Source: Candidatus Thorarchaeota archaeon SMTZ1-45 (GTDB taxonomy: Archaea > Asgardarchaeota > Thorarchaeia > Thorarchaeales > Thorarchaeaceae). From it: a stretch of DNA of 24,561 nt. The notes under the pieces were generated by a model. That model made no database searches, was not told the DNA's origin, and saw only the letters and a program-made list of their open reading frames with translations. Where the stretch lies: NCBI GenBank assembly GCA_001563335.1, contig LRSL01000016.1, positions 1 through 24,561 on the forward strand, in the 5' to 3' direction. The translations under genes were made by a program, and so were the position numbers. Shown here in pieces: positions 1 to 24,128 of this stretch (position 1 is its first letter; every line of letters begins with the position of its first letter).

Positions 1-1840
1 CGGAATGGTGAACTTCGAAATGTCCACGGTCATATGCCACTTCTGTTCCATTGGTCCAATAGACCTCAACATACCACTCACCAGCAGGTGAAGAAGAGTT
101 GAATATAAACGATCCACTATATATCTGACCCAATATGCCACCACTTATCTGATTCATTGCCCAAATCTGGTCTGAGGGATTAAACCAGCTGACATTTACA
201 GCGGTCAATGGGCCCATTGTTTCAGTATCTGTCCCAATAGTGACGTCTGCACGAGTTTCATTGCCTATTCTGAAAGTTGTCGAATCGCTCCATGTTGCAT
301 CAAATATCTGTTGCTTGATTGACTTGACATAATTGGGAGATTGCAGCTTTACCTCCCACCAACCTAGACGGTCAATAATTGAAGTAGGAACAGTGACAGA
401 GCCGCTGCTAATAATACATGTACTGGTAAGATCAGTAAGGAATGGATCTGATACTGTTAGATTCTCCCAATCAGACGGGAAAACAATTGTCATCTCAGGA
501 TTTTCGTATTGCCCGAGGTAACCAACATAAGCGTAGAATGTCAGTTCTGCGCTAAGACCATGGTCTATCGTGTATGAAACACCTACACTGCCAATATTAG
601 TCCGCCAATTTGAATCTGTAAATCGATGAGAATAAAGACGTGTTTTGTAATCAAAGGACACACTCGTGTTTGCTGTCAAAGTTACAGAAATAGGAGTGGT
701 AATCCAGTATGATGCATTTGGTATTGAAGCATAATATACACCCATGGATCCCGTAAGAGCCTCTGATACCCCACCAGTGACAAATTCAAGTTGAACCTGT
801 TCTGCAGTGGGAGGTATTGCCTTTATGAGTGATACATCATCAAGATAGACAGTGATATATGCTGAATTCCCAATACCATCAGCAATATGACCAGGATCTC
901 CATCGTAGTCATCTCTTTTGTCAAGAACTAATTCTTCATCAATGACTAAACCTAGTTCAAGTAGAAATGAACTTGGAACTCCACTAATGGTAAGTGGGAT
1001 ATCTCCTGTACTCAGCCAAACACCCCGTTGCGACAGAAGTAGAAGACTCATATTCCATACATTAATCCCATCAATGAAAAGAGTAATACTGCAATTGCCA
1101 ATAGGATCATCGTTCCCATCAGGTCCGTCAATTGGGCCCCTAAGATAGAAGTAGTCAAAACTGAAAATGAAGTCCTCAGTGTATGGAGTATTCTGAACAA
1201 ATTGAGTCCAAACAATTCGTGTGCCAGCTACATGTGCAAAGGCATTTTGACCTTCCTTTGCACCTTGACTTTCAACAGTGACATATTGACGTCCAGTCGA
1301 ATCATAGGCTGCTAGCTGGACATCATCTGCATAACTTGAAGGACCATCAATACTATCTGCAGACCAACCCAAAGGATAGTATTCAACTGTTCCATTTGGA
1401 TTCACGTTTGTACCGGGAATACCTTCTGAGTAACTTCCATTTACTGCATATAATTTTTCAAGATTCCAGACTGAAACCTCAGCTTCATTTGCAATCCAAC
1501 TATGAGCAACATCTAGCGGCAAATCATATCCAAGATTCTGGTTACTATCAGTTCGAGCAGAGATATTCGGGGAAGCAGCATAACCAGATTGCTCAACAAT
1601 AACTGGATTTAATATTCCATCCACAGGCGAATCATAAGCAAGATTATAGAGATTGGGTCTGGGTAATTGTTCATCTTCCAATGGAGTCAATTCATTATCA
1701 TCGATAGATTTCGGTGATGAGTTATTTTCAGTTGCGAGCTCCGAATCAATTGGAGTCGGAACAGGTATTTCTGGAATCCATGTCATCGTGATAATGAACA
1801 TTGATAGTACCAGTAATGAACACAGTAGTCTTCTTGCCAT
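1..1840 (-). CDS. Large secreted/surface glycoprotein, paralog of 2030..5575 (partial, 3' end runs off the window; absent from the ORF track)
   Basis: Manual translation of the minus strand is open from ATG 1840 (alternative in-frame ATG 1849; AGGTGA RBS just upstream) to the window edge: MARRLLCSLLVLSMFIITMTWIPEIP...VDGILNPVIVEQSGYAASPNISARTD...VWNLEKLYAVNGSYSEGIPGTNVNPNGTVEYYPLGWSA...NTSVSFDYKTRLYSHRF...DRLGWWEVKLQSPNY...YWTNGTEVAYDRGHFEVHHS. It is collinear with the 1181-aa neighbour and begins with a hydrophobic signal peptide. Confidence 0.9.
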   Translation of the reverse strand, partial: MARRLLCSLLVLSMFIITMTWIPEIPVPTPIDSELATENNSSPKSIDDNELTPLEDEQLPRPNLYNLAYDSPVDGILNPVIVEQSGYAASPNISARTDSNQNLGYDLPLDVAHSWIANEAEVSVWNLEKLYAVNGSYSEGIPGTNVNPNGTVEYYPLGWSADSIDGPSSYADDVQLAAYDSTGRQYVTVESQGAKEGQNAFAHVAGTRIVWTQFVQNTPYTEDFIFSFDYFYLRGPIDGPDGNDDPIGNCSITLFIDGINVWNMSLLLLSQRGVWLSTGDIPLTISGVPSSFLLELGLVIDEELVLDKRDDYDGDPGHIADGIGNSAYITVYLDDVSLIKAIPPTAEQVQLEFVTGGVSEALTGSMGVYYASIPNASYWITTPISVTLTANTSVSFDYKTRLYSHRFTDSNWRTNIGSVGVSYTIDHGLSAELTFYAYVGYLGQYENPEMTIVFPSDWENLTVSDPFLTDLTSTCIISSGSVTVPTSIIDRLGWWEVKLQSPNYVKSIKQQIFDATWSDSTTFRIGNETRADVTIGTDTETMGPLTAVNVSWFNPSDQIWAMNQISGGILGQIYSGSFIFNSSSPAGEWYVEVYWTNGTEVAYDRGHFEVHHS

Positions 1841-2029
1841 ATCCCTCATCACCTGAATTCCGATGACTTTTCCATCGTTTAAATTAGCCTGAACCCATTC
1901 CGTTCAGATTGTCAAGTTATTGAGCGTCTAGTAACTGGTCTAATTACATTTGTGTTGATGTACATATTATCCTAGGTTGACCTCAAGCCATTTGATATGA
2001 GGAAAACACACTGAAGTAGCTTATGCGTA

Positions 2030-5000
2030 TCAATCCGAATCATACGGAACATTATTCATGTCCGGATAAACAGGAAGAATATACTCCTCCTCTATGGCTC
2101 TGAAAACCCTAATGTAGACATCATCTTCAGAGCGTCCTGATTGTATGAGAATACGAATAAGTCTGACAAGGTTGAAAGAACCCTCTGCTTGCTCCAAAGG
2201 TATGGCCTTCTCAATGAATCTCAATTGTTTTGGAAACTTCTTGTGACCAACCTGATATCTTCGAATCAGTCCACCATCCATGAAATCATCAAACATCCAC
2301 TCGAATGTGTTGCGTATCTTACGATTAACGACCTCTCCAGTAGGTTCTGTAAGGGATTCGTCGAGCATCATACCAATTGCTCGCGCATAATTCTTCATCT
2401 TGTGCTCTTGGTCTGTAGAGGGTGATGTCATTGTGATAAATGCGCAAATTAGATGCTCAGTTGGAACAGTGCGGATTACTTCGGAAATTGGAATCACCGT
2501 GTAATCACCTGATCCTTTGCCTGTTTCAAACTCTGCTCTGAAGTGCATAATTGCTGTGATGAATGCCGACAACATCCCCTCCTCGAAGCCACCTTTAAAC
2601 ACCTTCGAGTAGACAGGAATTCCGCTAAGCTTGTGAAGGACCAGAAAACCTAGGATGTTGTTTGCATCGCTAATCCGATTCTTGATGTCAACTGCTTCAG
2701 AGTGTTTCTCACGTAGTTTCCGAGTACGCACTCTCTGTCCTGATACTACTGTTACTATAACAATAATTCCAAATCCTATTGGCATTGAGTTATCCAAAAG
2801 AGTCTGAACCAATCGAGCAGTGCTATCAAATGTAGGAACAAGAGCAGCACTGAAACCTTGAACCATTTCATGATTTGCTTTCTCAACCGCAATATTGACA
2901 GTATAGGTACCAGAGCCTGAATCTGGCATTATAAGAACTACAGAGTAAATTCCATCTCCATCTTCACTCATATTTGAACCAAAATGAAGAACGCCTCCTG
3001 GTCGATAAACTCCTAGAGTGACAATAGCTTCTTCCACTGGTAGACCAGTATCTAATTCGACTACAAGTACTTCCACAGTGAGGGGAGTACGTTCAAGTCC
3101 TACAAGACTAGAAATAGAAGCAATCTCAATAGGCACTTTGTTAACAAGGAACGATAAAACATGGGATTTGGTTTCGTAACCTTCTTTTGAAAATGTGAGT
3201 CTGATACTGTAGTCGCCAATAGCCATTGGTGATATTGTTAAATTGTAATGACCATTTCCGATGTTTGCGATGGAAGTCCATTCGGATCCTTCTTCCGTTA
3301 TGTTCACATCAGCTCCATCAATTCCAGTCCCGTTGAATGATGTTGAATAAAAGAAATCATAGCTGTATTGTCTTCCATAGATAAGTGGTGTCAGAGGTCC
3401 TAAAGGAGGAGTGAGACTTGTCAGATAGTGAGACTTGATCGTAATGATAAGAGGTACTGTTTCATAAAATGGTGCAGCTGAAACAATTACTACTGTGAAA
3501 TCACCTGCACCAACAAGAGCAGTATCAAAATCAGCCTGCCACCAGTTCTTTACTGCATCAGCAGTAAACTCCACGTCTGAACCAGACCAATTACCCACTA
3601 CCTGCGCCCCATCGTTAATAATATACAACCCATTATCAGAATCTAAGAATCTTAGGAAAACTGTGACTGGTTGACCCACGACAGTTTCAAGTGTGTCAGA
3701 GAAGACTAATTCAAGGATTGCTGTATGATGCAAGGAAAAAATTGAACAGTCATATGCAATTTCTGAACCATTTGACCAGAGGTAATTTACACCCCATATC
3801 CCTGCGGTTGTGTTAGTTGGTCCAAAAACAACAGCAGAACTACTAGCAACTCCGAAACCACCAGATGAGGAACTCTCATACCAGCATGTGCAATTTGGAA
3901 GCATCCATGTATAATTAACTGGACTTGAAATTGTTGGAGTATTAGATAACGTACCTAAAGTTACTGAAAGACGCGCAATGTCATTACTGTGGAATATACT
4001 CTCGTTCGCCCAGCCAGCATCATATCTCTCAACTAAAGCACCAGCAGCATAGTTTGGCGATTGGCATATGACTTTCCACCATCCCAATCTATCCGTTAGA
4101 GTATATGGTATTGTAACAACTCCTTCTGAGATGACACAACTTAGTGTGACATTGGTCAAGAAAGGATCATAGACAGTAAAATTCTCCCAATCCGATACAT
4201 GAGTGATACGCAAACTAAGTTCATCATAAACTCCAAGAAATCCCAAGTATGTAAACATCTCCAAATCACCACTTTCTCCAATTTCAATTGTGTATGCTAC
4301 ACCTTGGCGAAGTGTGTCTGTAGTCCAACTGGAATTGAGAAAACGATGATTCAATAGACGAGCAGAATAATCGAAAGAAACACTTGTGTTTGAGTATACT
4401 ATAAGATTGAGGTTACTACTAGTCCAGTAATTCGAGTTTATAATCTGACCAAAACCATTTCCAAGTGTTCCATTTATTGTTGTTGATGACCCATTGACTG
4501 AAAACCCAAGGTCAACATCCTCGCAATCAGGAGGTGTCATTGATACTAGTGAAACACTGTCGATGTACACGGTGAGATACTGGGTATTAATCAGACCATC
4601 TGGGAAACCATCTGAATCATAGTCGTTATCACCATCAACAACCATGGTGTTATTGATCACAAGACCAATCATGAACGAAGTCACGCCTGGTGAAGCCGCA
4701 GCAGTGATTGGTATTGCTCCTGTGCTAAACCAAGTACCTCTTTCTGAGAGTGATGGTAAGTCAACATTATACACTGATGCATTGTTGATGCGTACTTGCA
4801 AGGAGAAATCGCCACTAAACATCGGATTCAGTAGTCCCTGCAAGTATAGATAATCAAAACTTAGTACAAAATCATTAGTAAAGGGAGTCAATTCAAATGT
4901 TTGGTTCCAAAATACCACTGTATTAGCATAATGTGTGTAAATATGTTGAGGATTATTTGTTACCTCAGCTTGATTCTGAACAGACACATATCTGCGTCCA

Positions 5001-5575
5001 CTGTCGTCATACGAAACACGCTGGGTCTGCTCAATATTTGGATTATTACTTAAAGCAGACCAACCATATGGATAACTGCCAAGAGTACCATTAGGATTCA
5101 ATGTATAACCAGGAATGCCTTCATCAAATGTGCCATTCACAACATAGAGCTTCTGTAGGTCCCATACATCAATCTCAGCTGTACTTGCTATCCAGTCATA
5201 ATCAATATCAACAGGAAAGACCTGTTCGGTACCAATCATGGTATCAGTGCGAGCAGACAGATTCTCTGTATTATAATAGCCTCTTTGTTCTACTTGAACA
5301 GGATCAAGCACTCCAGAAACAGGCGGCTGTGCACTAGGCAAATCAGAAACTAGCATAACACCATGAGGAGAATCTTGTAAGATTGGAGATGGTTCAGTAA
5401 ACATCTGACCAACTGATTCAATCCTTGATACCGTCGATGAATCAAAGTACAGAGTATCATAGTTCGAACCTAGTGGGGACTGAAGCATTAGGCCAGTTGA
5501 AAGAAGTATCAAGAGAACAACAGGAATTGTCTGCAGGCACTTCAAATCTCTAGGTGGCATCCCCACAGCATCCAT
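2030..5575 (-). CDS. Large single-pass membrane protein: signal peptide, beta-rich glycosylated ectodomain, three Ig-like repeats, TM helix, cytoplasmic longin/roadblock-like domain
   Basis: 1181-aa ORF. N-terminal hydrophobic stretch IPVVLLILLSTGLML; many N-x-S/T sequons; three ~100-aa repeats ending in G-x-[YF]-x-[IV]-x-[ILV]...[YH]E; TM helix PIGFGIIVIVTVVSG followed by basic QRVRTRKLREK; tail ILGFLVLHKLSGIPVYSK...EEGMLSAFITAIMHF resembles the beta-beta-alpha start of longin domains. The ORF is secure, the domain calls are by eye. Confidence 0.8.
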   Translation of the reverse strand: MDAVGMPPRDLKCLQTIPVVLLILLSTGLMLQSPLGSNYDTLYFDSSTVSRIESVGQMFTEPSPILQDSPHGVMLVSDLPSAQPPVSGVLDPVQVEQRGYYNTENLSARTDTMIGTEQVFPVDIDYDWIASTAEIDVWDLQKLYVVNGTFDEGIPGYTLNPNGTLGSYPYGWSALSNNPNIEQTQRVSYDDSGRRYVSVQNQAEVTNNPQHIYTHYANTVVFWNQTFELTPFTNDFVLSFDYLYLQGLLNPMFSGDFSLQVRINNASVYNVDLPSLSERGTWFSTGAIPITAAASPGVTSFMIGLVINNTMVVDGDNDYDSDGFPDGLINTQYLTVYIDSVSLVSMTPPDCEDVDLGFSVNGSSTTINGTLGNGFGQIINSNYWTSSNLNLIVYSNTSVSFDYSARLLNHRFLNSSWTTDTLRQGVAYTIEIGESGDLEMFTYLGFLGVYDELSLRITHVSDWENFTVYDPFLTNVTLSCVISEGVVTIPYTLTDRLGWWKVICQSPNYAAGALVERYDAGWANESIFHSNDIARLSVTLGTLSNTPTISSPVNYTWMLPNCTCWYESSSSGGFGVASSSAVVFGPTNTTAGIWGVNYLWSNGSEIAYDCSIFSLHHTAILELVFSDTLETVVGQPVTVFLRFLDSDNGLYIINDGAQVVGNWSGSDVEFTADAVKNWWQADFDTALVGAGDFTVVIVSAAPFYETVPLIITIKSHYLTSLTPPLGPLTPLIYGRQYSYDFFYSTSFNGTGIDGADVNITEEGSEWTSIANIGNGHYNLTISPMAIGDYSIRLTFSKEGYETKSHVLSFLVNKVPIEIASISSLVGLERTPLTVEVLVVELDTGLPVEEAIVTLGVYRPGGVLHFGSNMSEDGDGIYSVVLIMPDSGSGTYTVNIAVEKANHEMVQGFSAALVPTFDSTARLVQTLLDNSMPIGFGIIVIVTVVSGQRVRTRKLREKHSEAVDIKNRISDANNILGFLVLHKLSGIPVYSKVFKGGFEEGMLSAFITAIMHFRAEFETGKGSGDYTVIPISEVIRTVPTEHLICAFITMTSPSTDQEHKMKNYARAIGMMLDESLTEPTGEVVNRKIRNTFEWMFDDFMDGGLIRRYQVGHKKFPKQLRFIEKAIPLEQAEGSFNLVRLIRILIQSGRSEDDVYIRVFRAIEEEYILPVYPDMNNVPYDSD

Positions 5576-5632: not shown

Positions 5633-6448
5633 TCAGTCTTCACCGTTTGTTACAATGCGGCCTTGAGCAATCACATCATGTTTATGAATGCTCTCCAAAG
5701 AACGCGCTTCAGCAAACATCTCTAAGTCCCGATCACTATACTTCTCTCTCGCATGTTGCAAGATGTTGCGGCAGACATCTTCGACAAGCAATGGGTTGTC
5801 ATGCATTTCCTTTGTGACATGTAACTCGTCTTCCAGTTTCAACAGGGAATATGTTTTGCTAGAAAATGACCGTTCAATAATCTCAATCATTGATCCATAG
5901 GTTGGAATAGCATCGATTTCTCCAACTATGCGTAGTTTTCCAAATGCACGTTGAATGTGCGTAAGACCATCGTTGTTTGCCATGCAATGTGGACAAACTG
6001 TGTTACCAATGACCTTCACTTCCACATCATGCATGAATGGTTTTCCTTCCGACATTATCGTGATAGCTGTGACTTCACAGACTTCCCATGTTCGTTTCTT
6101 GGAAATAGGTGTATGACTCACATAACCAAACTCAAAATCGAACTTGACTTCTCCACGCTTGAATTTGTGTTTTCCAGCCAGTCCTTCTAATATGCGCATC
6201 TGGATTTGTTCAATGGAGGAATGCACTCTGAACTGGTCACTGAGTTCTTCAGTCATAGATTCAACAAGACGGGACATGTGGACACCTTTCATTTCCGCTG
6301 GAAGATCTATTGTTATGTCCACAGTAGGCAGAATGTGATGTCTTAATCCGGAACGTTCAGTGATGACAAATGTCTTGAGATTCTTAACTCCCACTTTGCT
6401 TAGCTGAATCCTATGCTTGGGCCGTTCATTCTGAGTGTCAATCACCAA
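5633..6448 (-). CDS. mptA: GTP cyclohydrolase of the FolE2/MptA family (COG1469)
   Basis: Family motifs DTQ...LSKVGV, KGVHMSRL, TVCPHC, THIQR, LLKLEDE, NPLLVEDVCR, ESIHKHD. TTG start with GAGGCG RBS at 6456-6461. Confidence 0.88.
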   Translation of the reverse strand: MVIDTQNERPKHRIQLSKVGVKNLKTFVITERSGLRHHILPTVDITIDLPAEMKGVHMSRLVESMTEELSDQFRVHSSIEQIQMRILEGLAGKHKFKRGEVKFDFEFGYVSHTPISKKRTWEVCEVTAITIMSEGKPFMHDVEVKVIGNTVCPHCMANNDGLTHIQRAFGKLRIVGEIDAIPTYGSMIEIIERSFSSKTYSLLKLEDELHVTKEMHDNPLLVEDVCRNILQHAREKYSDRDLEMFAEARSLESIHKHDVIAQGRIVTNGED

Positions 6449-6480
6449 ATCATTACGCCTCTTTGTAGTCCAAGATTGTT

Positions 6481-6930
6481 TTATTTTTCATAACAGCCAG
6501 TTGAGCCTTCGCTTTCACTAACGCAGACTTTCACCTTGAAATCCTTCGGGAACTCCAGATTTTCATGAATATACTGAGCGAGCAGCTCTGCAGTTGTGGC
6601 TTTGGTTTGAAGAATTACGCAATCTTCCTCAGGAAAGACATATCGTTTTTCGCCAACATTCACCTCAATGAAGCCATCGGATTTGGAGATATTGATATTC
6701 GTTGACTCTCCTGGAAGTAACACCTTATGGTCTAGTGTTTTACAAATCTCAAGAGCTTTGGTTTTCGCTTTTCTGAAGTCATAAACCATTCCATCGTCAT
6801 TCAAAGGACCAGTCAATCTGATTTTCAGTGAATAATTATGACCATGAAGGTTCTCAACCTCTCCTTCACTTTTCAAAAAATGTGATGAGCTAAAGTGCAT
6901 CCTCTGATCTTTGACACGCACACTATGCAT
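6481..6930 (-). CDS. 6-pyruvoyl-tetrahydropterin synthase family protein (COG0720) with PTPS-III-type E-x2-HGH motif
   Basis: Motifs FSSSHF, EVENLHGHNY, GMVYDF, LDHKVL, TTAELLA, VSES. Start reassigned from 7032 to ATG 6930, which has a GGAGG RBS at 6938-6942, removes the overlap with lig and gives 149 aa. Confidence 0.85.
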   Translation of the reverse strand: MHSVRVKDQRMHFSSSHFLKSEGEVENLHGHNYSLKIRLTGPLNDDGMVYDFRKAKTKALEICKTLDHKVLLPGESTNINISKSDGFIEVNVGEKRYVFPEEDCVILQTKATTAELLAQYIHENLEFPKDFKVKVCVSESEGSTGCYEK

Positions 6931-6994
6931 TTGAAAGCCTCCATGTACAGGACTGGCTACGAACAGGACTACTTGTAAAACTGCCGGAAGGATA

Positions 6995-8752
6995 CTATTC
7001 AGAGATTCCACGTTGTCTTTCAAAGGCTTCAATCAAATCATCAACAGATGTTGCCTGAGTGGGATCCTTGTCATCACGCCAGCGACCAGTGAATCTCGGA
7101 AACCTTATTGCGAGTCCACCATCCTTGAGTTTTTGCCGACCAGCAGGATGAGTGGGACTTAGTGTAATCTCATCACCTAATACCTCAATGACCTCAACAG
7201 GCTCAAACCAGACATCCGCATCAATATCTGAGATTACCTTGGGATTCTTCTGTTCTAGTTTATGCTTATCTAAACGTTCTTTGAAATCTGCAAGCATCTC
7301 ATCAGTAAATCCAGTGCCAATCTTGCAAACAGTTGGATAGGTGTCACTGTCGATATCATAGGCTGAAGCTAAGATAGCACCATATAACCCAGTTCTTTTG
7401 CCCCGGCCATGAATGGCACCCACAATTACAAGATCAGCTGAATCAGCCAGTCCTTCCGTATATGATGCTTTCAACTTAATCCAGAGCCAGCTTCGAGACC
7501 CTGCCTGATATGTTGAATCATTATGTGTGGCTTTTGCAATTACACCTTCATGTCCAGATTTGATGGATTCTTCGAATATTGCTTGCAGTCGTTCAGGGTC
7601 ATCAGTGAGTTCAGCTACGGTAAGCTGTACTTTGTTAGTGACTTCAACAATCTCTTTCATGAGCTTTCTTCGTTTAAGCATCGAGAGGGAGGTGACATCT
7701 TCGCCATTAAGATAGAGAATGTCAAAAAAGAAAACAGCAATGGGAACCTCAGCCTGAGTCGCTTCAATGTCTGTCTTCCGTCTTCTACGCATTAGCTCTT
7801 GAAAAGGTCTCATCTTTCCAGTGGAGGGATCAATAGCAACACACTCACCCTCCATTACGCATGTATCAGCTTTCACATGTTTTTTGACCAGCTTTACAAC
7901 ATCTGGATATTGAGCTGTTATTATCTCCTGACGACGAGAATACAGTATTATTTCATCGCCTTTCTTATGAACCTGAACTCGCTCACCATCGTACTTATTC
8001 TCAACAAGAACTTTCCCTCCAGCCTTCTCAATTATTTCTTCAGGATTTGATAGCTTCTTCGCAGCCATCATTCGAATTGGGATTCCTACGTTCGTTCTGA
8101 CTTCTCGCACGGATTTGATGCCATTTTTTGCAAGCTTAAACGCGACCTCGCCAAGATCACTGCACACATTAAAAGCGGACTCAATGTCATTTCTTGTGTC
8201 TTTATTATCTGTAAATGCTGAAGCTAATGAATCTATGAGTCCCATATGTCCTAGACCTAAACGTAGAGAACCAGTAACTGTTCGAAGGATATACCGTGCT
8301 TCAATGGGTTTTGCATCAGCAAGTAGTCCAACTAGCTTGGAAACCTTGATTTTGTTACTACCAGATCCCATAACCTTTGCTGCTTGCTCTAAAGTGTCAT
8401 AGACCTTAGATACCGTCAAATCCTCTGCAAACAGAGTTGCCTGAGCACTCTTTTCCAGGAGAGTTTCAGCTGTACTTCCTATATCTCCTGTCTTCCTAAG
8501 AACAACCTGTACTTCGCTCTCAGGGACAGATGCGGCTGATGCGACCACTTGGATAGCCATCTTCTCAGCTACGCCAATCTCGGGTTCACCTTTCCAATCA
8601 GGATGTAGCTTACTTATGGTCAATGCAACTATTTGACGCACCTCCGGGGGGGTAGCCTTCTGAAGAAGTTCGGAGAATAGACGAATCTTCTCTAGCGATC
8701 CGCTGGTGGTTTCAACCTGGTCATATGCTGAAGCTAGGGTCTCGTAAAGCAA
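6995..8752 (-). CDS. lig: ATP-dependent DNA ligase (archaeal type)
   Basis: Motif I ENKYDGERVQVH, MEGECV, FFFDILYLNG, EGVIAK, WIKLK, DLVIVGA, IRFPRF; 585 aa; TTG start with GGGAGTG RBS. Confidence 0.97.
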   Translation of the reverse strand: MLYETLASAYDQVETTSGSLEKIRLFSELLQKATPPEVRQIVALTISKLHPDWKGEPEIGVAEKMAIQVVASAASVPESEVQVVLRKTGDIGSTAETLLEKSAQATLFAEDLTVSKVYDTLEQAAKVMGSGSNKIKVSKLVGLLADAKPIEARYILRTVTGSLRLGLGHMGLIDSLASAFTDNKDTRNDIESAFNVCSDLGEVAFKLAKNGIKSVREVRTNVGIPIRMMAAKKLSNPEEIIEKAGGKVLVENKYDGERVQVHKKGDEIILYSRRQEIITAQYPDVVKLVKKHVKADTCVMEGECVAIDPSTGKMRPFQELMRRRRKTDIEATQAEVPIAVFFFDILYLNGEDVTSLSMLKRRKLMKEIVEVTNKVQLTVAELTDDPERLQAIFEESIKSGHEGVIAKATHNDSTYQAGSRSWLWIKLKASYTEGLADSADLVIVGAIHGRGKRTGLYGAILASAYDIDSDTYPTVCKIGTGFTDEMLADFKERLDKHKLEQKNPKVISDIDADVWFEPVEVIEVLGDEITLSPTHPAGRQKLKDGGLAIRFPRFTGRWRDDKDPTQATSVDDLIEAFERQRGISE

Positions 8753-8787
8753 AGTTTCACTCCCTATTTTAGAGGCTCACCACATGC

Positions 8788-8795
8788 TTTATAAA
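8788..8795. promoter_or_regulatory. Palindromic TATA box TTTATAAA, possibly shared by divergent lig and rps17e
   Basis: The only TATA-like element I see in the 93-bp divergent intergenic region; about 35 nt from the lig start and 50 nt from the rps17e start. Confidence 0.5.
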
Positions 8796-8845
8796 CTCAG
8801 TCTGGAGCAAACCCGCAGTCACAGAAAATACTCGGTGAGCTGAAA

Positions 8846-9094
8846 TTGGGTAGTATAAGACCTCGATATATTAAGAACGCTGCGAAGAACCTTCTGGCTC
8901 TTTATCCAGACACATTCACAGATGATTTTGAATCTAACAAGAGGCTTGTAGAGCAGTTCACGGATGTTAGATCAAAGAAGGTGAGAAATCGCATCGCAGG
9001 ATATTTGGTCAGGCTCATCAAGATTGGAGTTGCTCGAGAAGAAGCTGAAGCTCTCGAACCTGGTGACGAAGTCATTGATGACATGGAGATGTAA
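8846..9094 (+). CDS. rps17e: 30S ribosomal protein S17e
   Basis: MGSIRPRYIK...YPDTFTDDFESNKRLV...SKKVRNRIAGYLVR matches S17e; GGTGA RBS before the TTG start; acidic C-terminal tail. Confidence 0.96.
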   Translation: MGSIRPRYIKNAAKNLLALYPDTFTDDFESNKRLVEQFTDVRSKKVRNRIAGYLVRLIKIGVAREEAEALEPGDEVIDDMEM

Positions 9095-9144
9095 TATTCA
9101 GATATTCAAGATCCCATCCCCTACATCTCAAAGATATCTTAAGG

Positions 9145-9165
9145 AGGAGTGTATAGTCCACTCCT
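9145..9165 (+). promoter_or_regulatory. Inverted repeat AGGAGTG-N7-CACTCCT directly abutting the methyltransferase ATG (operator or SD-sequestering hairpin)
   Basis: Perfect 7-bp arms at 9145-9151 and 9159-9165; ATG at 9166; the left arm overlaps AGGAGGAG. Confidence 0.5.
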
Positions 9166-10182
9166 ATGTCTGATTGGAAGAACCTTATACTCCATGGTGA
9201 TTGTCTTGATGTTATTAAGAAACACATAGACATTCTCAAGGGAAAGGTTCGTCTAATCTATATCGACCCACCCTTTTTTTCTGGTACTGATTATACTCTC
9301 AAGATAAGGTCCGACGGAGATAGTCAAAAAGCTGGTAATCTTCAAGAAGAAAAGACTTACAGTGACAAATGGGAAGGTGGACTTCAAGAGTATTTAGATT
9401 TCATGAGAGTTCGTCTTAGCGCGATGAAACCTTTACTCAAGGATAATGGCAGTATCTGGGTGCATCTTGATTGGCATGTGTCGCACTACATCAAGGTCAT
9501 CCTTGACGAAATATTTGAGTATTCCAATTTTGTGAATGAGATAATATGGAAACGCACCAATAGCCCAAAGGCTCAGAGCAAGGGTTTTGGAAGTCAGCAT
9601 GATGTTATTCTCCTGTACGCAGCTAATGCTTCCAAGTTCAAGACACAGCAAGTCTATAGAGAATTTGATGAAAAATCTCGCAGACCCTATAGCTACAAGG
9701 ATGAGAGAGGTAGGTTCCGACTAATAGAGATAGAGGCTCAAGGGATACAACGGACTGAAGACAGAAAGCAGTTTGAGTGGAGAGGGAGGACTGCACCGTA
9801 CCTTTATAGAAAGAAAATCCTTGATGAATGGTGGGAAGCGGGATTAATCTACACAAGTAAAAATGGCCGATATACAAAAAAGCAGTATCTCTCAGAAGTA
9901 CCAGGAATACCAGTATCAGACCTTTGGATTGACATTAGTCCAGTTCAGGGAACATCGAAGGAAAATACAGGATTTCTTACACAAAAGCCAGAAGCTTTAC
10001 TTGAACGCATTATTGATTCTTCCACTGACTCAGATGATATCATCGCAGACTTTTTTGCAGGTTCTGGAACCACTGCAGCAGTGGCTGAAAAGATGAATCG
10101 TCGATGGATCATATGTGATTCTTCAGAAGCGGCAATTCGAGTTATTGAAAATCGGCTTGGAATATCGCGGACTTCTTTATGA
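9166..10182 (+). CDS. Site-specific DNA methyltransferase, beta class (N6-adenine/N4-cytosine, Mod-like), with no adjacent endonuclease
   Basis: ILHGDCL, motif IV LIYIDPPF, GSIWVHLDWH, NEIIWKR, SDLWIDI, TQKPEALLERII and motif I DFFAGSGTT, in the IV-TRD-I order of beta-class enzymes. Confidence 0.93.
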   Translation: MSDWKNLILHGDCLDVIKKHIDILKGKVRLIYIDPPFFSGTDYTLKIRSDGDSQKAGNLQEEKTYSDKWEGGLQEYLDFMRVRLSAMKPLLKDNGSIWVHLDWHVSHYIKVILDEIFEYSNFVNEIIWKRTNSPKAQSKGFGSQHDVILLYAANASKFKTQQVYREFDEKSRRPYSYKDERGRFRLIEIEAQGIQRTEDRKQFEWRGRTAPYLYRKKILDEWWEAGLIYTSKNGRYTKKQYLSEVPGIPVSDLWIDISPVQGTSKENTGFLTQKPEALLERIIDSSTDSDDIIADFFAGSGTTAAVAEKMNRRWIICDSSEAAIRVIENRLGISRTSL

Positions 10183-10255: not shown

Positions 10256-11344
10256 TCAATCCACCCAGATGGGTTCATCGTAATCCGTTGTTTTCTTGAA
10301 GACTTCGCCCATTGCGTTTTTATCCCATCTCCTGAGTAGCAAGTAGCTAATTAATATTCCAACAAGAGCGAAGATGTAAGGCAGATAGAGAAAGAAGTAT
10401 AGATAGGGTGAGTAGGGATAATATCCTCCACCCAATAACAAAAATAGTGGAATGTACCCAAGTAAGAATGACCCTATTGCAGCGAGAGTGGACACTCCTA
10501 CTCTTCTTGAGCCACGCCTACGTTTCTCCCAGTCACGGACACCCCACACAACAGTTTGTGCTTCATCCTCAGTTAACGGGTATCCTCTCTCAATATGTAC
10601 CTTGGCAACATTCGGATGTATACCATAAATCTCTTGAATACCATCAAAAGCAAGATCATGCCGCCAAAAAGTACCCTTCAAGAGTAATACGAGTATAATA
10701 GGAACCATGAAGAAGCTAGCAAAGGTGCTAAGTGCATACATAATGGTGTAGAAATAACCAATCATAATGCTCTGAGCGATTGTTATGGTGAAAGGCACCA
10801 GAAGTAGACTTGATGGATATGTGAATATCAAGAAAAGAATGAGTGAGCCAAACAAGTCTGCAATCCATCTTGTTCTGGGAACTCGTAATAAGTGGAAGGC
10901 AAGAAGAGCCTCACCACTTCCAGGAGTTTTTAATATTAAGTCAACCATCGGTTCAGAAACAATCACTGCATCAAATAATGGATTGAATGATGTGGCAATG
11001 AAAGATTCTTCACTCTGGCGAGTCCATATATGTGCTCTCGATGGCAAAACGACCTTCTGATAGACTTGTCCAACAAGAGCATTAAACTCAGAATTGGTCG
11101 ATGGATTATTGAATCTGATTTTGAGTAGCAGTAGAATTAGAATATGGATAATAAACCCTACATTCAATGTGATAAATAAAGCAGTTATCCAGTTCGAAGT
11201 AATGATTGTGAACTCGAAAATGAAGTAAAGGACAACAGAATATGGTAACGCTGTAAGAAACGTAAGGAGTGCAATGCCTCCTCTTGAAACAAGAGGTACT
11301 CGAGTACCAAACCATCTTGCATACCTGTCAGACGACTTCGTCAT
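10256..11344 (-). CDS. Multi-pass membrane protein with possible degenerate peptidase M48/HtpX-like fold
   Basis: About six hydrophobic helices. The soluble segment HIWTRQSEESFIATSFNPLFDAVIVSEPMVDLI...EALLAFHLLRV resembles the M48 region before HExxH, but HExxH is absent. ATG 11344 is preferred to TTG 11353; a TTATAA box lies at about 11382. Confidence 0.7.
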   Translation of the reverse strand: MTKSSDRYARWFGTRVPLVSRGGIALLTFLTALPYSVVLYFIFEFTIITSNWITALFITLNVGFIIHILILLLLKIRFNNPSTNSEFNALVGQVYQKVVLPSRAHIWTRQSEESFIATSFNPLFDAVIVSEPMVDLILKTPGSGEALLAFHLLRVPRTRWIADLFGSLILFLIFTYPSSLLLVPFTITIAQSIMIGYFYTIMYALSTFASFFMVPIILVLLLKGTFWRHDLAFDGIQEIYGIHPNVAKVHIERGYPLTEDEAQTVVWGVRDWEKRRRGSRRVGVSTLAAIGSFLLGYIPLFLLLGGGYYPYSPYLYFFLYLPYIFALVGILISYLLLRRWDKNAMGEVFKKTTDYDEPIWVD

Positions 11345-11489
11345 TCCGCCCAACCAACCTATGGGGGCTTAGCGCGGGGAGTTATAACTTGTATGCTTCA
11401 AGAGATGCTTTTAGTCAATAAAGGAATCAGGGTGCCAGTTCCAAGTCACATCCCCATTACTGGTACTCACATCATTGCTTCTCATTAGA

Positions 11490-11682: not shown

Positions 11683-12414
11683 TCAAAGTTCCTTCAATTT
11701 CCTGATTGCACCACCAGGCGCAACTCCCTTTGGACATGCTTTTACACAATTCATTACAAGGTCACAAAGAGGTGCACCATCTTTTTGGGTTGCTACTTTA
11801 GCATATTGTTCAGGATTAGAACTTCTAGAGTCTTCATGGAAACGCCAAGCCTTTGCAAGAGCCGCAGGACCAACATACTCATCTTTAGTAGAATTGACTG
11901 GACAAGAACCATAGCAGAGAGCACAAAGAATGCAATTTACATATCGCTCAATCTTCTTTCGTTCTTTGGGACTCTGTGACAAGGGCTCATCGCCATGCTC
12001 TATATCACTCCAGAGCTTGAGCGATACAAGTGTATCATAGAACTTTTTCATGTCCACAACTAGATCCTTCAAGATTGGCATATTTGGTAGTGGTTCAACC
12101 AATATTTCTACTTCAGGATTCCATCCTGTAGGGGTTTCAGATATTTGAGAGAATGATTTCAGTTTCATCTCGTTCTTCTTCACTTCTATTATCTGGGTTC
12201 TACATGCTAGACGGGGTTCCTTATTAATCAACATTGAACAGCTACCACAGACAGCCCCCCTGCATGAATATCTAAATGAGAGTGAGGGGTCCATCCTATC
12301 TTGGATTTGAAATAGAGCATCAAGTACAGTCATTCCTTTCTTTGTGTCAACTTTGTAGAGATCGTAATGAGTGATGGTCCCACCAATTCTGCTTCTAGCA
12401 ATTCTGAACATCAT
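11683..12414 (-). CDS. sdhB: Succinate dehydrogenase/fumarate reductase iron-sulfur subunit
   Basis: [2Fe-2S] SCRGAVCGSC...RLAC, [4Fe-4S] CILCALCYGSCP, [3Fe-4S]-type CDLVMNCVKACP, EPLPNMPILKDLVVD. Start overlaps the sdhA stop (TAATG). Confidence 0.95.
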   Translation of the reverse strand: MMFRIARSRIGGTITHYDLYKVDTKKGMTVLDALFQIQDRMDPSLSFRYSCRGAVCGSCSMLINKEPRLACRTQIIEVKKNEMKLKSFSQISETPTGWNPEVEILVEPLPNMPILKDLVVDMKKFYDTLVSLKLWSDIEHGDEPLSQSPKERKKIERYVNCILCALCYGSCPVNSTKDEYVGPAALAKAWRFHEDSRSSNPEQYAKVATQKDGAPLCDLVMNCVKACPKGVAPGGAIRKLKEL

Positions 12415-14096
12415 TAGTAGCTCCTCTCCTTAACTTCAAACATACCAAGATTCACGTCGATTAGTTCCGTCTTGATGTAGTCTTCCACTTTTATGAACAG
12501 TGAGTGTTTCAAGAAATTCTCGTCATCACGTTCTGGATAGTCAAGTCTCCAGTGTGCACCACGACTCTCTCTTCGCATGAGCGCGCCCATTGTGATTATT
12601 TCAGCAATGTCTAGCATGTTCTCAAGTTCAAGTGTCCGAATAAGGGCATAGTTGAACTTATCATCGCTTCGTCCAACACTGACATTCTTGAATCGAGTCT
12701 TTAGCTCACGGATCATTTTTAATGCAGCTTCAAGAGCATCTGATTTTCTATAGACTCCAACAAGCACATCCATTGTCTGACCCATTGTTTCTCGAATATT
12801 CGCAGTTGAATCTCCACCTTCATGAAGTAGTAATCTTTGAAGTCGCTCTCGTGTTTCAAAGGTTTCTTGTTCAACAGATTCTACATCTAGGGATTTAACT
12901 GATGAAACATATTCTCCCACAGCTTTACCAACTGATCTGCCAAATACAAGTGTTTCAAGCAGAGAATTTCCACCAAGACGATTTGCACCATGAACGCTCA
13001 TGCATGCAGTTTCACCAACAGCGAAGAGACCTGGAACCGGAGTAGCACCTCTTTTATCAGTATGAATCCCGCCCATGGAGTAATGTTGTGCGGGTTGTAC
13101 TGGGATTGGTTCGTCAATCGGATCGATTCCAGCAAAATTGATGCATATCTCTTGGATCCCAGGTAAGCGTTCGTTAATCTTCTCTTTGCCCAAATGTCTA
13201 AGATCGAGATGCACATATTCATCCTCAAACCCTCGACTCTCCAGAACCTCAGTCCGTATTGCCCTAGCAACAATATCTCTAGGAGCTAGTTCCATCTTTT
13301 CAGGAGCATATTTTTCCATGAACCTCTCGCCAAGAGAATTGATGAGATATCCTCCTTCACCACGAGCTCCTTCAGTTATCAGAATACTGGATCCAAATAG
13401 ACAAGTGGGATGGAATTGGACAAACTCCATGTCTTTCAAGGGAGCTCCAACCTTTAGAGCAAGGGCACAACCATCACCAGTATTGATTATTGCATTAGTT
13501 GAATGACCATAAACTCTCCCGAATCCTCCTGTTGCAAGGACAACAGCTTTCGAGGAAAAACCATGAACTTCTCCTGTAGCAATGTTCAGAGCTGTCAAGC
13601 CACAGATTCGATTCTCTGACTTCGCAAGCGACGTGACGAACCACTCGTTGTAGAACATGATACCCCGTTTCAATGCTTGCTCAAAGGTTGTGTGCAGTAA
13701 ATTATGTCCAGTCCTATCTGCTGCATAACAAGTTCGTGGAAAGGCTGCACCACCAAAAGGTCTCTGAGCTATCTTTCCATCTTTTGTCCGAGAGAAAGCT
13801 GTGCCCCAACGTTCGTTCTCAATTACTGCTCTTGGAGCCTCTCTAGCAAGAATCTCAACCACATCTTGGTCTGCGAGATAATCAGATCCCTTCACCGTAT
13901 CAAAAGCATGAGCTTCCCAAGAGTCATCTTCACCCAACGAAGCGTTAATTCCTCCCTGAGCAGCAACAGAATGGGATCTCAATGGATGGACCTTTGTGAC
14001 AATAGCTACATTGAATTTTTCGCAGAGCTGAATCGCAGTTCGGAGTCCTGAAAGACCAGCACCAACGATGAGAACGTCATGTTTGAAAGATGAAAT
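12414..14096 (-). CDS. sdhA: Succinate dehydrogenase/fumarate reductase flavoprotein subunit (start extended to ATT 14096)
   Basis: RSHSVAAQGG (covalent-FAD His), QFHPT, TEGARGEGG, ELAPRDIVAR, HYSMGG, HGANRLGGNSL, RESRGAH. The frame continues upstream of the ORF-track start as ISSFKHDVLIVGAGLSGLRTAIQL...VTKVHPL, which holds the FAD GxGxxG motif. RBS GAGGTGA at 14109-14103. Confidence 0.93.
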   Translation of the reverse strand: MSSFKHDVLIVGAGLSGLRTAIQLCEKFNVAIVTKVHPLRSHSVAAQGGINASLGEDDSWEAHAFDTVKGSDYLADQDVVEILAREAPRAVIENERWGTAFSRTKDGKIAQRPFGGAAFPRTCYAADRTGHNLLHTTFEQALKRGIMFYNEWFVTSLAKSENRICGLTALNIATGEVHGFSSKAVVLATGGFGRVYGHSTNAIINTGDGCALALKVGAPLKDMEFVQFHPTCLFGSSILITEGARGEGGYLINSLGERFMEKYAPEKMELAPRDIVARAIRTEVLESRGFEDEYVHLDLRHLGKEKINERLPGIQEICINFAGIDPIDEPIPVQPAQHYSMGGIHTDKRGATPVPGLFAVGETACMSVHGANRLGGNSLLETLVFGRSVGKAVGEYVSSVKSLDVESVEQETFETRERLQRLLLHEGGDSTANIRETMGQTMDVLVGVYRKSDALEAALKMIRELKTRFKNVSVGRSDDKFNYALIRTLELENMLDIAEIITMGALMRRESRGAHWRLDYPERDDENFLKHSLFIKVEDYIKTELIDVNLGMFEVKERSY

Positions 14097-14130
14097 CGTC
14101 GCTCACCTCTGGATAACAAAGCTGTTGTTT

Positions 14131-14139
14131 AGTTATAAC
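14131..14139 (-). promoter_or_regulatory. Putative TATA box (GTTATAACT) for sdhAB
   Basis: Lies in the fumC-sdhA gap about 35 nt upstream of the proposed start. The same AGTTATAAC element occurs at 11380-11388, upstream of the 10256..11344 gene. Confidence 0.45.
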
Positions 14140-14158
14140 GTGTACGGCTCGAGATTAA

Positions 14159-15547
14159 TTAGACCATCTTTGTTGGGTCCAGGAGTTCATCAAGATCTCC
14201 ATTAATCTCAATCCCTGATTCTGTGACAACTTCATGTATTGTCTTGCCAGTTGAAAGAGCAATCTTAGCGATTTCAGCAGCTTTGTCATAGCCAATGATA
14301 GGCGCTAATCGTGTAACAACCATCAAGCTTTCTTGAAGTTGTCGAGCGATTTGTTCTTTGTTCACTTCTAAGCCTTGTAGGCAATTCTCTACGAATGAGT
14401 CTATTGCCTTGCCAAGAATTCGTATTGAATCAAGAAGATTGACAATCATCATTGGCTTTGTGACATTTAGATCGAGAATACTACCAAAACCCTCAGCCGC
14501 AGCTATAGCTGCATCATTGCCTATCACCTGAAGAGCGACCTGAATTAGAGCCTCTGACTGTGTTGGATTGACTTTTCCTGGCATGATGGAAGACCCTGGT
14601 TCATTCTCTGGCAAAACGAGTTCACCAAGTCCAGCTCTTGGACCACTCCCCATCCAACGAATGTCATTAGCCATCTTCATGCATGTTAGAGCAAGAGACC
14701 TTAGAGCACTGCTGGTTCTAACGATTGCACTATGAGAGGAAATACCTTCGGCTGGAACAGGATTTACCTCAAATTTGAAACCAGTTATTTTACTTAGCTC
14801 GCCTACAGCATTTTTTGCAAACCCTTTTGGTGTGTTGAGTCCAGTCCCTAAAGCAGTTCCACCAATTGCAAGAATCAAAAGACCCTCACTTGCGTTTGCG
14901 AGGTCTCTGTCTATTGAAGATTCAATCTGTTCTTTGTAGACCCTGAATTCTGTCGAGAGTGGAATGGGTACAGCATCTTGTAGATGAGTTCGGCCAATCT
15001 TTACAACATCATCAAATTGCTTAATCTTCTCATCAAGAGCCATTCGTAGTCTACTGAGAGAAGGAAGAAGATTGTCCCGAATTGCGATCAAGGTTGATAC
15101 ATGCATCGCTGTGGGAATTACATCATTACTGGACTGAGACATATTGACTGTGTTGTTTGGATGGACCGGAGATTTAGAACCTCTTGGATGACCAAGAATC
15201 TCATTAGCGCGATTACTTAAGACTTCATTCATGTTCATGTTTGTCTGCGTCCCTGACCCAGTCTGAAAGATATCAATCGGAAACTGGTCATCGAACTTGC
15301 CTTGAATGACCTCGTCAATTGCAGTTTCAAGAGCTGTGGCAAAATCATCAGGAATTAGTCCAGCTGTTCTATTGGCAAGAAGACACGCCTTCTTCACTTG
15401 GGCAAGGGAATGGATAAACTCAGACGAGAAGGACCGTCCGCTTATCTTAAAGTTCATCAATGCACGTTGTGTGTTGATTCCCCAGTAGGCGTCTGCAGGC
15501 ACATCGAGTTCACCTATGGAGTCCTTCTCTCTTCTAGTCTTCTTCAT
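14159..15547 (-). CDS. fumC: Class II fumarate hydratase
   Basis: REKDSIG, YWGINTQRA, QTGSGTQTNMNMNEV, SQSSNDVIPTAMH, KIGRTHLQDA and signature GSSIMPGKVNPTQSE. ATG 15547 (MKKTRR) has a GAGGT RBS and is preferred to TTG 15565. Position next to sdhAB favours fumarase over aspartase. Confidence 0.9.
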   Translation of the reverse strand: MKKTRREKDSIGELDVPADAYWGINTQRALMNFKISGRSFSSEFIHSLAQVKKACLLANRTAGLIPDDFATALETAIDEVIQGKFDDQFPIDIFQTGSGTQTNMNMNEVLSNRANEILGHPRGSKSPVHPNNTVNMSQSSNDVIPTAMHVSTLIAIRDNLLPSLSRLRMALDEKIKQFDDVVKIGRTHLQDAVPIPLSTEFRVYKEQIESSIDRDLANASEGLLILAIGGTALGTGLNTPKGFAKNAVGELSKITGFKFEVNPVPAEGISSHSAIVRTSSALRSLALTCMKMANDIRWMGSGPRAGLGELVLPENEPGSSIMPGKVNPTQSEALIQVALQVIGNDAAIAAAEGFGSILDLNVTKPMMIVNLLDSIRILGKAIDSFVENCLQGLEVNKEQIARQLQESLMVVTRLAPIIGYDKAAEIAKIALSTGKTIHEVVTESGIEINGDLDELLDPTKMV

Positions 15548-15582
15548 AATCAAGACCTCTGGCAAGTTCTGATATAGATGTT

Positions 15583-24052: not shown

Positions 24053-24128
24053 TGAATGCAATATCTTTATCACAATAACGAGGAATTAGCCTTTAGGGAT
24101 CGACAAATTCGAACCCTAGGTGTATCAA

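Follow-up and report, generated by a model that had tools for sequence, protein, structure and literature searches.

What a longin domain might do at the inner end of a large archaeal surface protein is the question raised by the DNA analysed here, the whole 24,561-nucleotide contig LRSL01000016.1 (the window; contig C16 in our numbering) of Candidatus Thorarchaeota archaeon SMTZ1-45, whose assembly comprises 3.54 Mb in 119 contigs and is 87.7% complete. On the reverse strand of the window, an open reading frame at 2030..5575 runs uninterrupted over 1181 codons and encodes P0001, a protein whose database copy begins at residue 6 (1176 amino acids, aa). A preliminary description made from the DNA letters alone had singled out window positions 2030-2790, which encode residues 929-1181, as the transmembrane (TM) helix and cytoplasmic tail of a receptor-like protein, with a longin-like domain and a possible winged-helix (WH) end. 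Our analysis suggests that, through its longin, this tail may offer a small GTPase or a soluble longin partner a docking platform fixed to the membrane, a tentative reading to which we give a probability of roughly 45%. The parts of the gene and the adjoining paralog are as follows.

2030..5575, minus strand: whole gene P0001, encoding a predicted 1181-aa type I membrane glycoprotein
5465..5539, minus strand: N-terminal hydrophobic leader, aa 13-37 (hydropathy windows 11-37 above 1.6)
2792..5464, minus strand: ectodomain, aa 38-928, with 22 N-X-S/T sequons, poor in Lys/Arg and rich in Ser/Thr/Asn
2735..2791, minus strand: single TM helix, aa 929-947 (SMPIGFGIIVIVTVVSGQ region), predicted from hydropathy
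2660..2734, minus strand: basic stop-transfer segment RVRTRKLREKH and conserved juxtamembrane helix, aa 948-972 (tail-model helix 2-22; predicted local distance difference test, pLDDT, 95-97)
2267..2659, minus strand: predicted cytoplasmic longin domain, aa 973-1103 (tail 23-153), from the AlphaFold2 model, structural matches and conservation
2060..2260, minus strand: acidic winged-helix-like domain, aa 1106-1172 (tail 156-222), suggested by WH matches at Z 5-6.4
2033..2059, minus strand: unstructured, non-conserved C-terminal end, aa 1173-1181 (pLDDT <50 at tail 224-231)
2..1852, minus strand: tandem paralog P0002, first 617 aa, the rest lying beyond the contig end

Three hydrophobic stretches were recognized in P0001 by hydropathy (19-residue windows, score >1.6), namely the leader at aa 11-37, which is probably a signal peptide or signal anchor, a weaker stretch at 693-713 within the ectodomain, and the TM segment at 925-949, directly after whose helix RVRTRKLREKH stands. 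All 22 N-X-S/T sequons of the protein lie within aa 105-868; the ectodomain was expected to hold 10.6 +/- 2.9 from shuffled sequences, and 22 or more occurred in 0 of 2000 shuffles, while the tail holds none against 0.93 expected, a difference that is not significant alone. Among 131 homologues that reach 1000 aa and have a recognizable TM helix, sequons numbered 2.5 per 100 aa outside and 0.2 inside. Lysine makes up 0.9% of the ectodomain vs 6.0% of the tail, in which arginine reaches 7.7%. The positive-inside flank together with the sequon asymmetry supports an N-out, C-in type I topology, and judged by its sequence P0001 is a type I membrane glycoprotein, with a leader, one TM helix, a C-terminus predicted inside and predicted glycosylation sites outside. 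The arrangement of ectodomain, single TM helix and cytoplasmic tail proposed in the preliminary description, whose four peptide strings are all present in the P0001 translation, is thus borne out by hydropathy, basic flank and sequon distribution; a C-terminus outside the cell, which would have spoken against it, is at odds with the basic C-side flank and the near absence of sequons inside.

The 231-aa tail was modelled with AlphaFold2 (AF2) from an alignment of 35 family sequences (tail numbering plus 950 gives the protein residue), with a pLDDT of 89.4 and a predicted template modelling score (pTM) of 0.85. DSSP assigned to the model a helix at 2-22, strands at 24-31 and 37-42, a helix at 49-66, a two-residue bridge at 78-79, strands at 84-88 and 92-98 and helices at 104-121 and 135-148, followed by a short helix at 151-154, a strand at 156-159, helices at 166-178, 186-195 and 200-212 and a last strand at 216-218. 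The longin order beta1-beta2-alpha1-beta3-beta4-beta5-alpha2-alpha3 is present in it, beta3 being a mere bridge. The beta-beta-alpha-beta-beta-beta-alpha pattern that had been read from the sequence reappears in the model, joined by a further helix and then by a small helical and beta tail. Across the 35 sequences, the most conserved positions are the juxtamembrane RFxDxxNxxG, SAFITAIxxFRxEF in alpha1, and IPISxxIRxVxTxxLICAFIT in beta3-beta5.

Structure comparison placed this model among longins. With the whole tail, the matches listed by Foldseek against the Protein Data Bank (PDB) were all of longin/roadblock type (best E 3.2e-4), and included COPI zeta/delta, AP sigma/mu, sedlin, TRAPP subunits, MglB, Mon1-Ccz1, Fuzzy, LAMTOR, the C-terminal domains of Gtr/Rag and Asgard roadblocks. 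VIA was applied in a wide search of 48,161 representative chains, independent of Foldseek, and in a second look at Foldseek's top 988 chains. In the wide search, 40 of the 48,161 chains reached Z>=8, and the best 50 rows, judged by their titles, were all longin/roadblock superfold proteins or complexes, headed by sedlin (2j3w_A; Z 11.9, root-mean-square deviation (rmsd) 2.9, 126 residues aligned, tail residues 15-151) and next by a TRAPPII chain (Z 11.2), synbindin (10.4), Sec22 (10.4), VAMP7 (10.3) and the Lst4 longin (9.9); at Z 9.6, with 129 residues aligned, came the longin part of a roadblock-longin protein from a lokiarchaeon (8yqg_B). The second look gave Z>=8 for 148 of the 988 chains, with 7kmt_K of yeast TRAPPIII at Z 12.6, and its best 50 rows were again longin/roadblock-type proteins; the TRAPP longins (Z 12.6 and 11.9) aligned over 121-127 residues at rmsd 2.8-3.0. 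The assignment of individual matched chains to longin subunits is in part our own, and one chain at Z 7.4 we take to be a profilin (Tyr p 36).

Longin neighbours aligned with the tail through helix 135-148, the longin alpha3, and up to tail 149-155 at Z 10-12.6, whereas the alignments of roadblock neighbours (MglB and MK-D1 roadblocks) ended at about tail 121-127 with Z <=9.2. The tail has alpha3 and no Pfam match to Roadblock/LC7 (PF03259), and its conserved N-terminal helix, which is continuous with the TM segment, is a roadblock-like extra element. As the longin alignments are higher-scoring and longer and run through alpha3, the first tail domain, aa 973-1103, is in the predicted structure a longin domain, preceded by an additional conserved helix. 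The Pfam families Longin, Sedlin_N, Sybindin, Clat_adaptor_s and Fuz_longin_1 gave no match in the tail at E<=10; with Fuz_longin_1, soluble relatives in the genome score 13.7-22.5 bits, below the cut-off of 26.1. The check proposed in the preliminary description, AlphaFold and Foldseek on the tail, thus returned a longin-like fold (Z up to 12.6) whose listed structural neighbours are all longin/roadblock-type, and not one foreign to longins and profilins.

The last ~70 residues are weakly suggested by modelling to be winged-helix-like. Residues 1075-1181 modelled alone gave a pLDDT of 77.1, with a core >90. Foldseek found no match for this sub-model at E<=1e-3, and its best VIA row was TbtB (6ec8_A), a thiopeptide enzyme with a lantibiotic-dehydratase-type domain, at Z 8.5 over 85 residues. 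WH domains matched at Z 5.0-6.4 over 50-69 residues, where such Z values are common; they included the MetAP insert, the archaeal MCM C-terminal WH, SAMD1, MecI/BlaI, DEP, RPA32C, Lrp/AsnC, ORC and Stn1. The second wing strand seems to be absent, the protein ending there. The claim of a winged-helix tail is therefore plausible but weakly supported. Over 35 family members, the WH part has a mean net charge of -4.1 (range -11 to +4) and the putative recognition helix one of -2.4. An acidic WH part with an acidic recognition helix makes DNA binding unlikely and favours a protein-binding WH; the basic recognition helix expected of a membrane-bound winged helix-turn-helix (wHTH) regulator was not found, charge being a proxy for binding.

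The tail recurs in many proteins. In a library of representatives at 50% identity, it matched 129 clusters at E<=1e-3, 119 at E<=1e-10 and 84 at E<=1e-30, numbers that mark it as a conserved unit and no chance pattern; the matches span about query residues 2-220, nearly the full 231 aa. The module stands at or near the C-terminus of long proteins (1835-2050 of 2053, 1912-2125 of 2145 and 2107-2326 of 2342 residues), and the full-length relatives retrieved by a word-indexed search number 107, with lengths of 690-1916 aa. The precomputed Pfam assignments of relatives (PF13620, PF05751, PF01835, PF09134, PF00630, PF02369 and PF13115) are of Ig-like or beta-sandwich types (CarboxypepD_reg, FixH, MG2, Invasin_D3, Filamin, Big_1, YtkA), and in the paralogs' ectodomains the matches are sub-threshold. 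Ectodomains of such varied type with a shared tail indicate variable outsides joined to a constant inside. The membrane-proximal ectodomain of P0001 resembles the Ig-like or beta-sandwich repeats of its homologues. Its aa 85-350 (window about 4526-5323, minus strand), which are kept among paralogs and in a 1557-aa protein labelled 'Lokiarchaeota' (P0094), may form a galactose-binding or carbohydrate-binding-module (CBM)-like jelly roll; this is a lead only, taken from language-model look-alikes in the Atlas (CBM_4_9, galactose-binding-like and DUF642 clusters) whose scores of 0.84-0.87 lie under the 0.9 mark. Look-alikes of the tail in the same resource include Asgard proteins of 215-236 aa (0.82-0.92), likewise a lead only. 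Between paralogs, the tail is 37-45% identical vs 30-38% for the ectodomain.

Named relatives were labelled Thorarchaeota or Sifarchaeia, with one Lokiarchaeota and one Promethearchaeota. Among 201 genomes sampled across the Asgard phylum, 47 had a match at E<=1e-5, in agreement with the Asgard origin proposed earlier. Of the 43 genomes in the family to which the window belongs, 36 matched, with 1-6 matches each and mostly at E 1e-35 to 1e-110; other families gave weak matches (f9 7/40, f12 2/19, f22 1/10; E about 1e-6 to 1e-8, one 1.5e-20), some of which sit in large open frames. In these genome sequences the module hardly occurs outside one Asgard family. Its existence as a soluble protein by itself was also considered, but all six short homologues inspected (183-250 aa) look like fragments: five start within the TM or juxtamembrane helix or shortly behind it, and P0178, the sixth, starts within longin strand beta1.

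Four copies of the large protein are present in the genome of SMTZ1-45, on contigs C16 (P0001), C10, C89 and, as a fragment, C76, and a short frame on contig C73 has a weak tail match. The tandem paralog of the preliminary description is real: P0002 lies directly downstream of the P0001 gene, cut by the contig end, and a P0002-type paralog comes next in five of six syntenic loci of related genomes, which belong to one genus and were chosen as best matches and hence are not independent. All six loci have ligase, PTPS, FolE2 and the orthologue (1176-1186 aa) in the same order, and the methylase that precedes them in the window was seen in five, L028 beginning within the ligase gene. The P0002-type protein measures 1693-1789 aa when complete and is cut by contig ends in two loci; an extra paralog of 1344-1357 aa, between the others or last, is found in three of the six. 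The 447-aa frame that opens contig C76 (1-2108) is 49.6-51.4% identical to the C-terminus of P0002-type proteins and next to it lies the gene for a membrane protein of 230 aa with DUF4332/HhH motifs, whose counterpart (227-230 aa; 72.6% and 58.3% identity) stands behind the paralog at two of the six loci. From the match to the P0002-type C-terminus and the same next gene, contig C76 most likely continues the window beyond base 1, and P0002 would thus also carry a TM helix and a longin-WH tail.

Candidate partners of the tail are encoded elsewhere in the same genome. Ras-profile loci number 25 (14 at E<=1e-38), with a largely overlapping Arf set, and Roadblock/LC7 loci 11 at E<=1e-3, of which 10 exceed the Pfam cut-off; none of these loci lies on the window's contig. 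The Fuz_longin_1 profile found seven sub-threshold places (12-23.6 bits vs a cut-off of 26.1). On contig C82 (15693-18977), two soluble proteins of 303 and 430 aa are encoded side by side, both with a longin-like domain at the N-terminus (Fuz_longin_1 below threshold) and wHTH domains; the 303-aa product passes the HTH_47 cut-off, the 430-aa product passes that of TrmB and matches HTH_NPRL3 at E 0.092, and a gene for a ParA/MinD-type ATPase follows the pair, which may be of the published 'NPRL2-like' kind. Comparison of the tail family profile with the 303-aa protein gave an hhalign probability of 82% over 38 columns, covering the beta2-alpha1 motif, and with the 430-aa protein 4.5%. Among the soluble proteins found in the genome, the one closest to the tail is the C73 protein, of ~300 aa in other genomes, with a tail match at E 5e-5, an N-terminal Fuz_longin_1 match at E 1.4e-4 and a C-terminal domain to which no family was assigned. 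The shared beta2-alpha1 motif and the C73 and C82 matches place the membrane-anchored module within a wider, diverged Thor longin set, several members of which have, by profile matching, wHTH domains after the longin. A prediction of the tail homodimer (two copies of tail 1-222 with the family alignment, run without controls) gave 0.00 and 0.00 vs a mark of 0.42 and speaks neither for nor against dimerization. Before the C73-type gene, a Cys-rich protein of 236-237 aa is encoded in the genome of SMTZ1-45 and in three of four related genomes (unseen in L033), and an L-aspartate-oxidase-like gene lies near the C73-type gene in this genome and one relative.

Considering these results, we propose a plausible working for the P0001 family. 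It is a paralogous family with a variable extracellular part, one TM helix and a constant 215-aa cytoplasmic module, the extracellular part possibly being a lectin-like head on a stalk of Ig-like repeats and the module a juxtamembrane helix followed by the longin and the acidic winged-helix-like domain. The module could act as a protein-binding platform that holds or regulates one of the genome's many Ras-superfamily GTPases, or could pair with a second longin chain, whether that of the tandem paralog, a soluble longin or a longin-wHTH protein. What the ectodomain binds outside, or its mere position, would thereby be tied to machinery inside. The preliminary description's signalling to small GTPases, extracellular sensing and dimerization with the tandem paralog likewise belong to this inferred part. 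The conserved alpha1/beta3-beta5 surface is the probable contact site, and the acidic winged helix would offer a second protein-binding surface and not read DNA. A small GTPase and/or a second longin chain are the likeliest partners in view of the roles of longins elsewhere and of the GTPases, roadblocks and soluble longin-wHTH proteins of the genome.

Several observations weigh against a GTPase or longin platform. Longins also serve in roles unrelated to GTPases, in SNAREs and coat subunits, and the fold alone does not give the function. Tail residues 951-1181 returned nothing meaningful from Pfam (E<=10) or NCBIfam (E<=1), and PDB sequences, compared with the tail as a single sequence and as a family profile, gave chance-level matches only. 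The winged-helix assignment rests on Z 5-6.4 and a sub-model pLDDT of 77. Orthologues share 53-69% identity in the tail vs 54-64% in the ectodomain, so that the tail is not clearly better conserved. The conserved neighbours at the six syntenic loci are housekeeping genes (FolE2, PTPS/QueD, DNA ligase, methylase), and no GTPase, roadblock or longin gene stands beside the P0001 gene in the window or at those loci. Finally, the NPR2 profile (PF06218) found no match at E<=10 in this 87.7%-complete genome.

The main rival, which we consider somewhat unlikely, holds that P0001 is a structural surface protein or adhesin whose tail serves sorting, clustering or retention, or ties it to a cytoskeleton or coat-like layer, with neither signal nor GTPase regulation. 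The ectodomain, with its heavy sequon load and the Ig-like repeats of its homologues, is indeed like archaeal and bacterial surface adhesins, and the top structural neighbours include coat and SNARE longins (sigma/mu adaptins, zeta/delta-COP, Sec22, VAMP7, Ykt6), which are coat-binding rather than GTPase-regulating; conserved signalling genes are also absent near the six loci. Cultured Lokiarchaeia are in keeping with such a role, the cells of Lokiarchaeum ossiferum having many complex surface proteins in place of an ordered S-layer (PMC9834061; publications are cited here for the searched portions of their text). However, a folded two-domain module of 215 aa that retains 33-47% identity between paralogs whose ectodomains differ greatly exceeds what a simple anchor needs, and no coat-like partner is known in this lineage.

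A prokaryotic class of adhesion or contact receptors working in a eukaryote-like manner, in which variable lectin/Ig ectodomains would bind partners such as syntrophic cells or polymers and the constant tail would directly recruit or switch a Rab-, Arf- or Rag-like GTPase where contact is made, maybe as a heterodimer of paralogs or with a soluble NPRL2-like longin, is a doubtful proposal in our estimation. Improbable to a much greater degree is a membrane-tethered one-component transcription regulator, in which the WH domain would bind DNA directly or after cleavage of the tail and the longin would dimerize or bind a ligand. The tail does end in a winged-helix-like domain, soluble relatives in the same genome join a longin-like domain to a TrmB- or HTH_47-type wHTH above the Pfam cut-offs, and Thor clusters bearing TrmB or HTH_47 are among the Atlas look-alikes of the tail (0.80-0.81, a lead only); but the WH part and its recognition helix are acidic in the 35 sequences, a Pfam scan as permissive as E<=10 gives the tail no HTH family, and the structural matches include protein-binding WH domains (MCM C-terminus, RPA32C, DEP, RRE-type). 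Improbable to a similar degree is a profilin- or roadblock-like first domain that binds actin or a motor-like partner and so couples P0001 to the actin cytoskeleton of the Asgard cell. Although roadblock, longin and profilin share a common core fold (PMC10933270), roadblock proteins match at Z 7.5-9.2 and the juxtamembrane helix could serve as a roadblock N-terminal helix, the longins score higher and align through alpha3 where the roadblocks stop, and neither Robl_LC7 nor profilin matches the tail in Pfam.

The longin platform that we prefer can be compared with several known systems. Dimers of longin or roadblock domains provide small GTPases with a platform, examples being MglB-MglA, SRX-SRbeta, TRAPP-Rab1, Mon1-Ccz1-Rab7 and Ragulator-Rag (PMC3747258; PMC10933270). 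The best structural neighbours of tail 14-153 are the TRAPP longins (sedlin/TRAPPC2, Bet5/TRAPPC1 and Trs23/TRAPPC4-synbindin), with the same beta2-alpha-beta3-alpha-alpha order (7kmt_K Z 12.6, 2j3w_A 11.9, 7b6d_E 11.9); unlike P0001, however, TRAPP subunits are soluble, form a Rab guanine nucleotide exchange factor complex and have no TM helix, ectodomain or winged helix, and their identity to the tail in structural alignments is 6-12%. The longin SNAREs (Sec22, Ykt6, VAMP7; Z 9.4-11.2) resemble P0001 in placing a longin on the cytoplasmic face of a membrane-anchored protein, but they are tail-anchored, with the longin N-terminal, the TM segment C-terminal, a SNARE motif and no ectodomain, whereas in P0001 the TM helix precedes the longin and no coiled-coil SNARE motif is predicted. 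Integrins and cadherins likewise have a large glycosylated ectodomain made of Ig-like repeats, one TM helix and an adaptor-recruiting tail, an analogy for which we claim no homology; in P0001 the adaptor-like domain is built into the receptor chain itself. MglB and Roadblock/LC7 proteins and the Asgard roadblock and roadblock-longin proteins (8yqg, 9jue, 7yh1) have the same superfold and act, or are proposed to act, as dimeric platforms for GTPases, the MK-D1 roadblocks matching the tail at Z 7.9-9.2, but they are small soluble proteins or GTPase fusions, none of which the searched text describes with a TM helix and ectodomain (PMC10933270). According to the same source, the partners of Asgard longin and roadblock proteins cannot be read from gene order.

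The order of longin then WH is common to the tail and to NPRL2/NPRL3 of GATOR1 (Npr2/Npr3 of SEACIT), which consist of a longin and wHTH domains, two to three WH in number (PMC3521125; PMC3747258). The published distribution of NPRL2-like proteins in Thor and Loki genomes mirrors that of the P0001 tail family (10.1101/2020.10.19.343400), and 'NPRL2-like longin domain' is a category of eukaryotic signature proteins (ESPs) for Lokiarchaeum ossiferum (PMC9834061). In contrast, NPRL2-type proteins are soluble and the tail of P0001 has one WH-like domain, not two or three; the GATOR1 chain 8fw5_C matches the tail longin at Z 8.4, well below the TRAPP, SNARE and coat longins, and GATOR1 chains are absent from the best 50 of the 988 second-look chains, which leaves room for a relationship. 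The profiles NPR2, NPR3 and HTH_NPRL3 gave no match in the tail at E<=10. The tail therefore resembles NPRL2/3 in domain logic, and we do not file it as a member.

As to novelty, the portions searched of a study of Asgard clusters of orthologous genes (asCOGs) report 130 asCOGs in the Roadblock/LC7 superfamily, longins included, multidomain ESP architectures that are mostly unique to narrow Asgard subsets, NPRL2-like longins fused to two-component-type domains, and a family with a longin and an NPRL2-type C-terminal domain 'in most Thor MAGs' (10.1101/2020.10.19.343400), in which the P0001 family may already be tabulated. In the literature text searched, PMC12962969 included, we found no account of a surface protein that crosses the membrane once and ends in a longin on the cytoplasmic side, figures and preprint supplements being outside its scope. 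Of the undescribed system announced in the preliminary description, the membrane-anchored, receptor-like fusion thus apparently stands as new in the sources covered, whereas the longin expansions, unusual fusions and Thor NPRL2-like proteins of longin plus C-terminal domain are in print.

Longin and roadblock domains count among the ESPs of Asgard archaea, and a longin built into the cytoplasmic end of big surface glycoproteins with variable ectodomains points to a concrete place of action, the cell envelope. The P0001 family could be a handle for finding the GTPase or longin with which the tail works. If it couples surface contacts to a GTPase, it bears on the pre-eukaryotic origin of membrane-site identity and cell-cell contact signalling; were these proteins contact receptors, they would represent a receptor-coupled forerunner of the GATOR- and TRAPP-type longin platforms and of eukaryotic membrane-site specification. 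Even if it is only an anchor, the tail would keep its value as a marker of the unusual Asgard envelope that lacks an S-layer.

The rest of the window holds genes of other kinds. Three frames, at 10256-11353 (minus strand, 365 aa), 18264-18866 (minus strand, 200 aa) and 24120-24560 (plus strand, at least 147 aa), have no Pfam match at E<=0.01, and the first two also lack a meaningful NCBIfam match. A 290-aa frame at 20831-21703 (plus strand), between the genes for a thermosome subunit and a thioredoxin-reductase-like protein, resembles a MobB-like P-loop protein only weakly and below threshold (Pfam E 5.8e-5; TIGR00176 22.4 bits vs 76.2). Positions 5633-10182 encode the FolE2-type GTP cyclohydrolase, PTPS/QueD, ATP-dependent DNA ligase and a divergent N4/N6 DNA methylase. 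Central-carbon genes form a one-strand run at 11683-18167 (minus strand), made up of the alpha/gamma-type (16449-18167) and beta (15583-16452) parts of a 2-oxoacid:ferredoxin oxidoreductase, a class II fumarase (14159-15565), and the flavoprotein (12414-13982) and Fe-S (11683-12414) subunits of a succinate dehydrogenase/fumarate reductase of SdhA/SdhB type.

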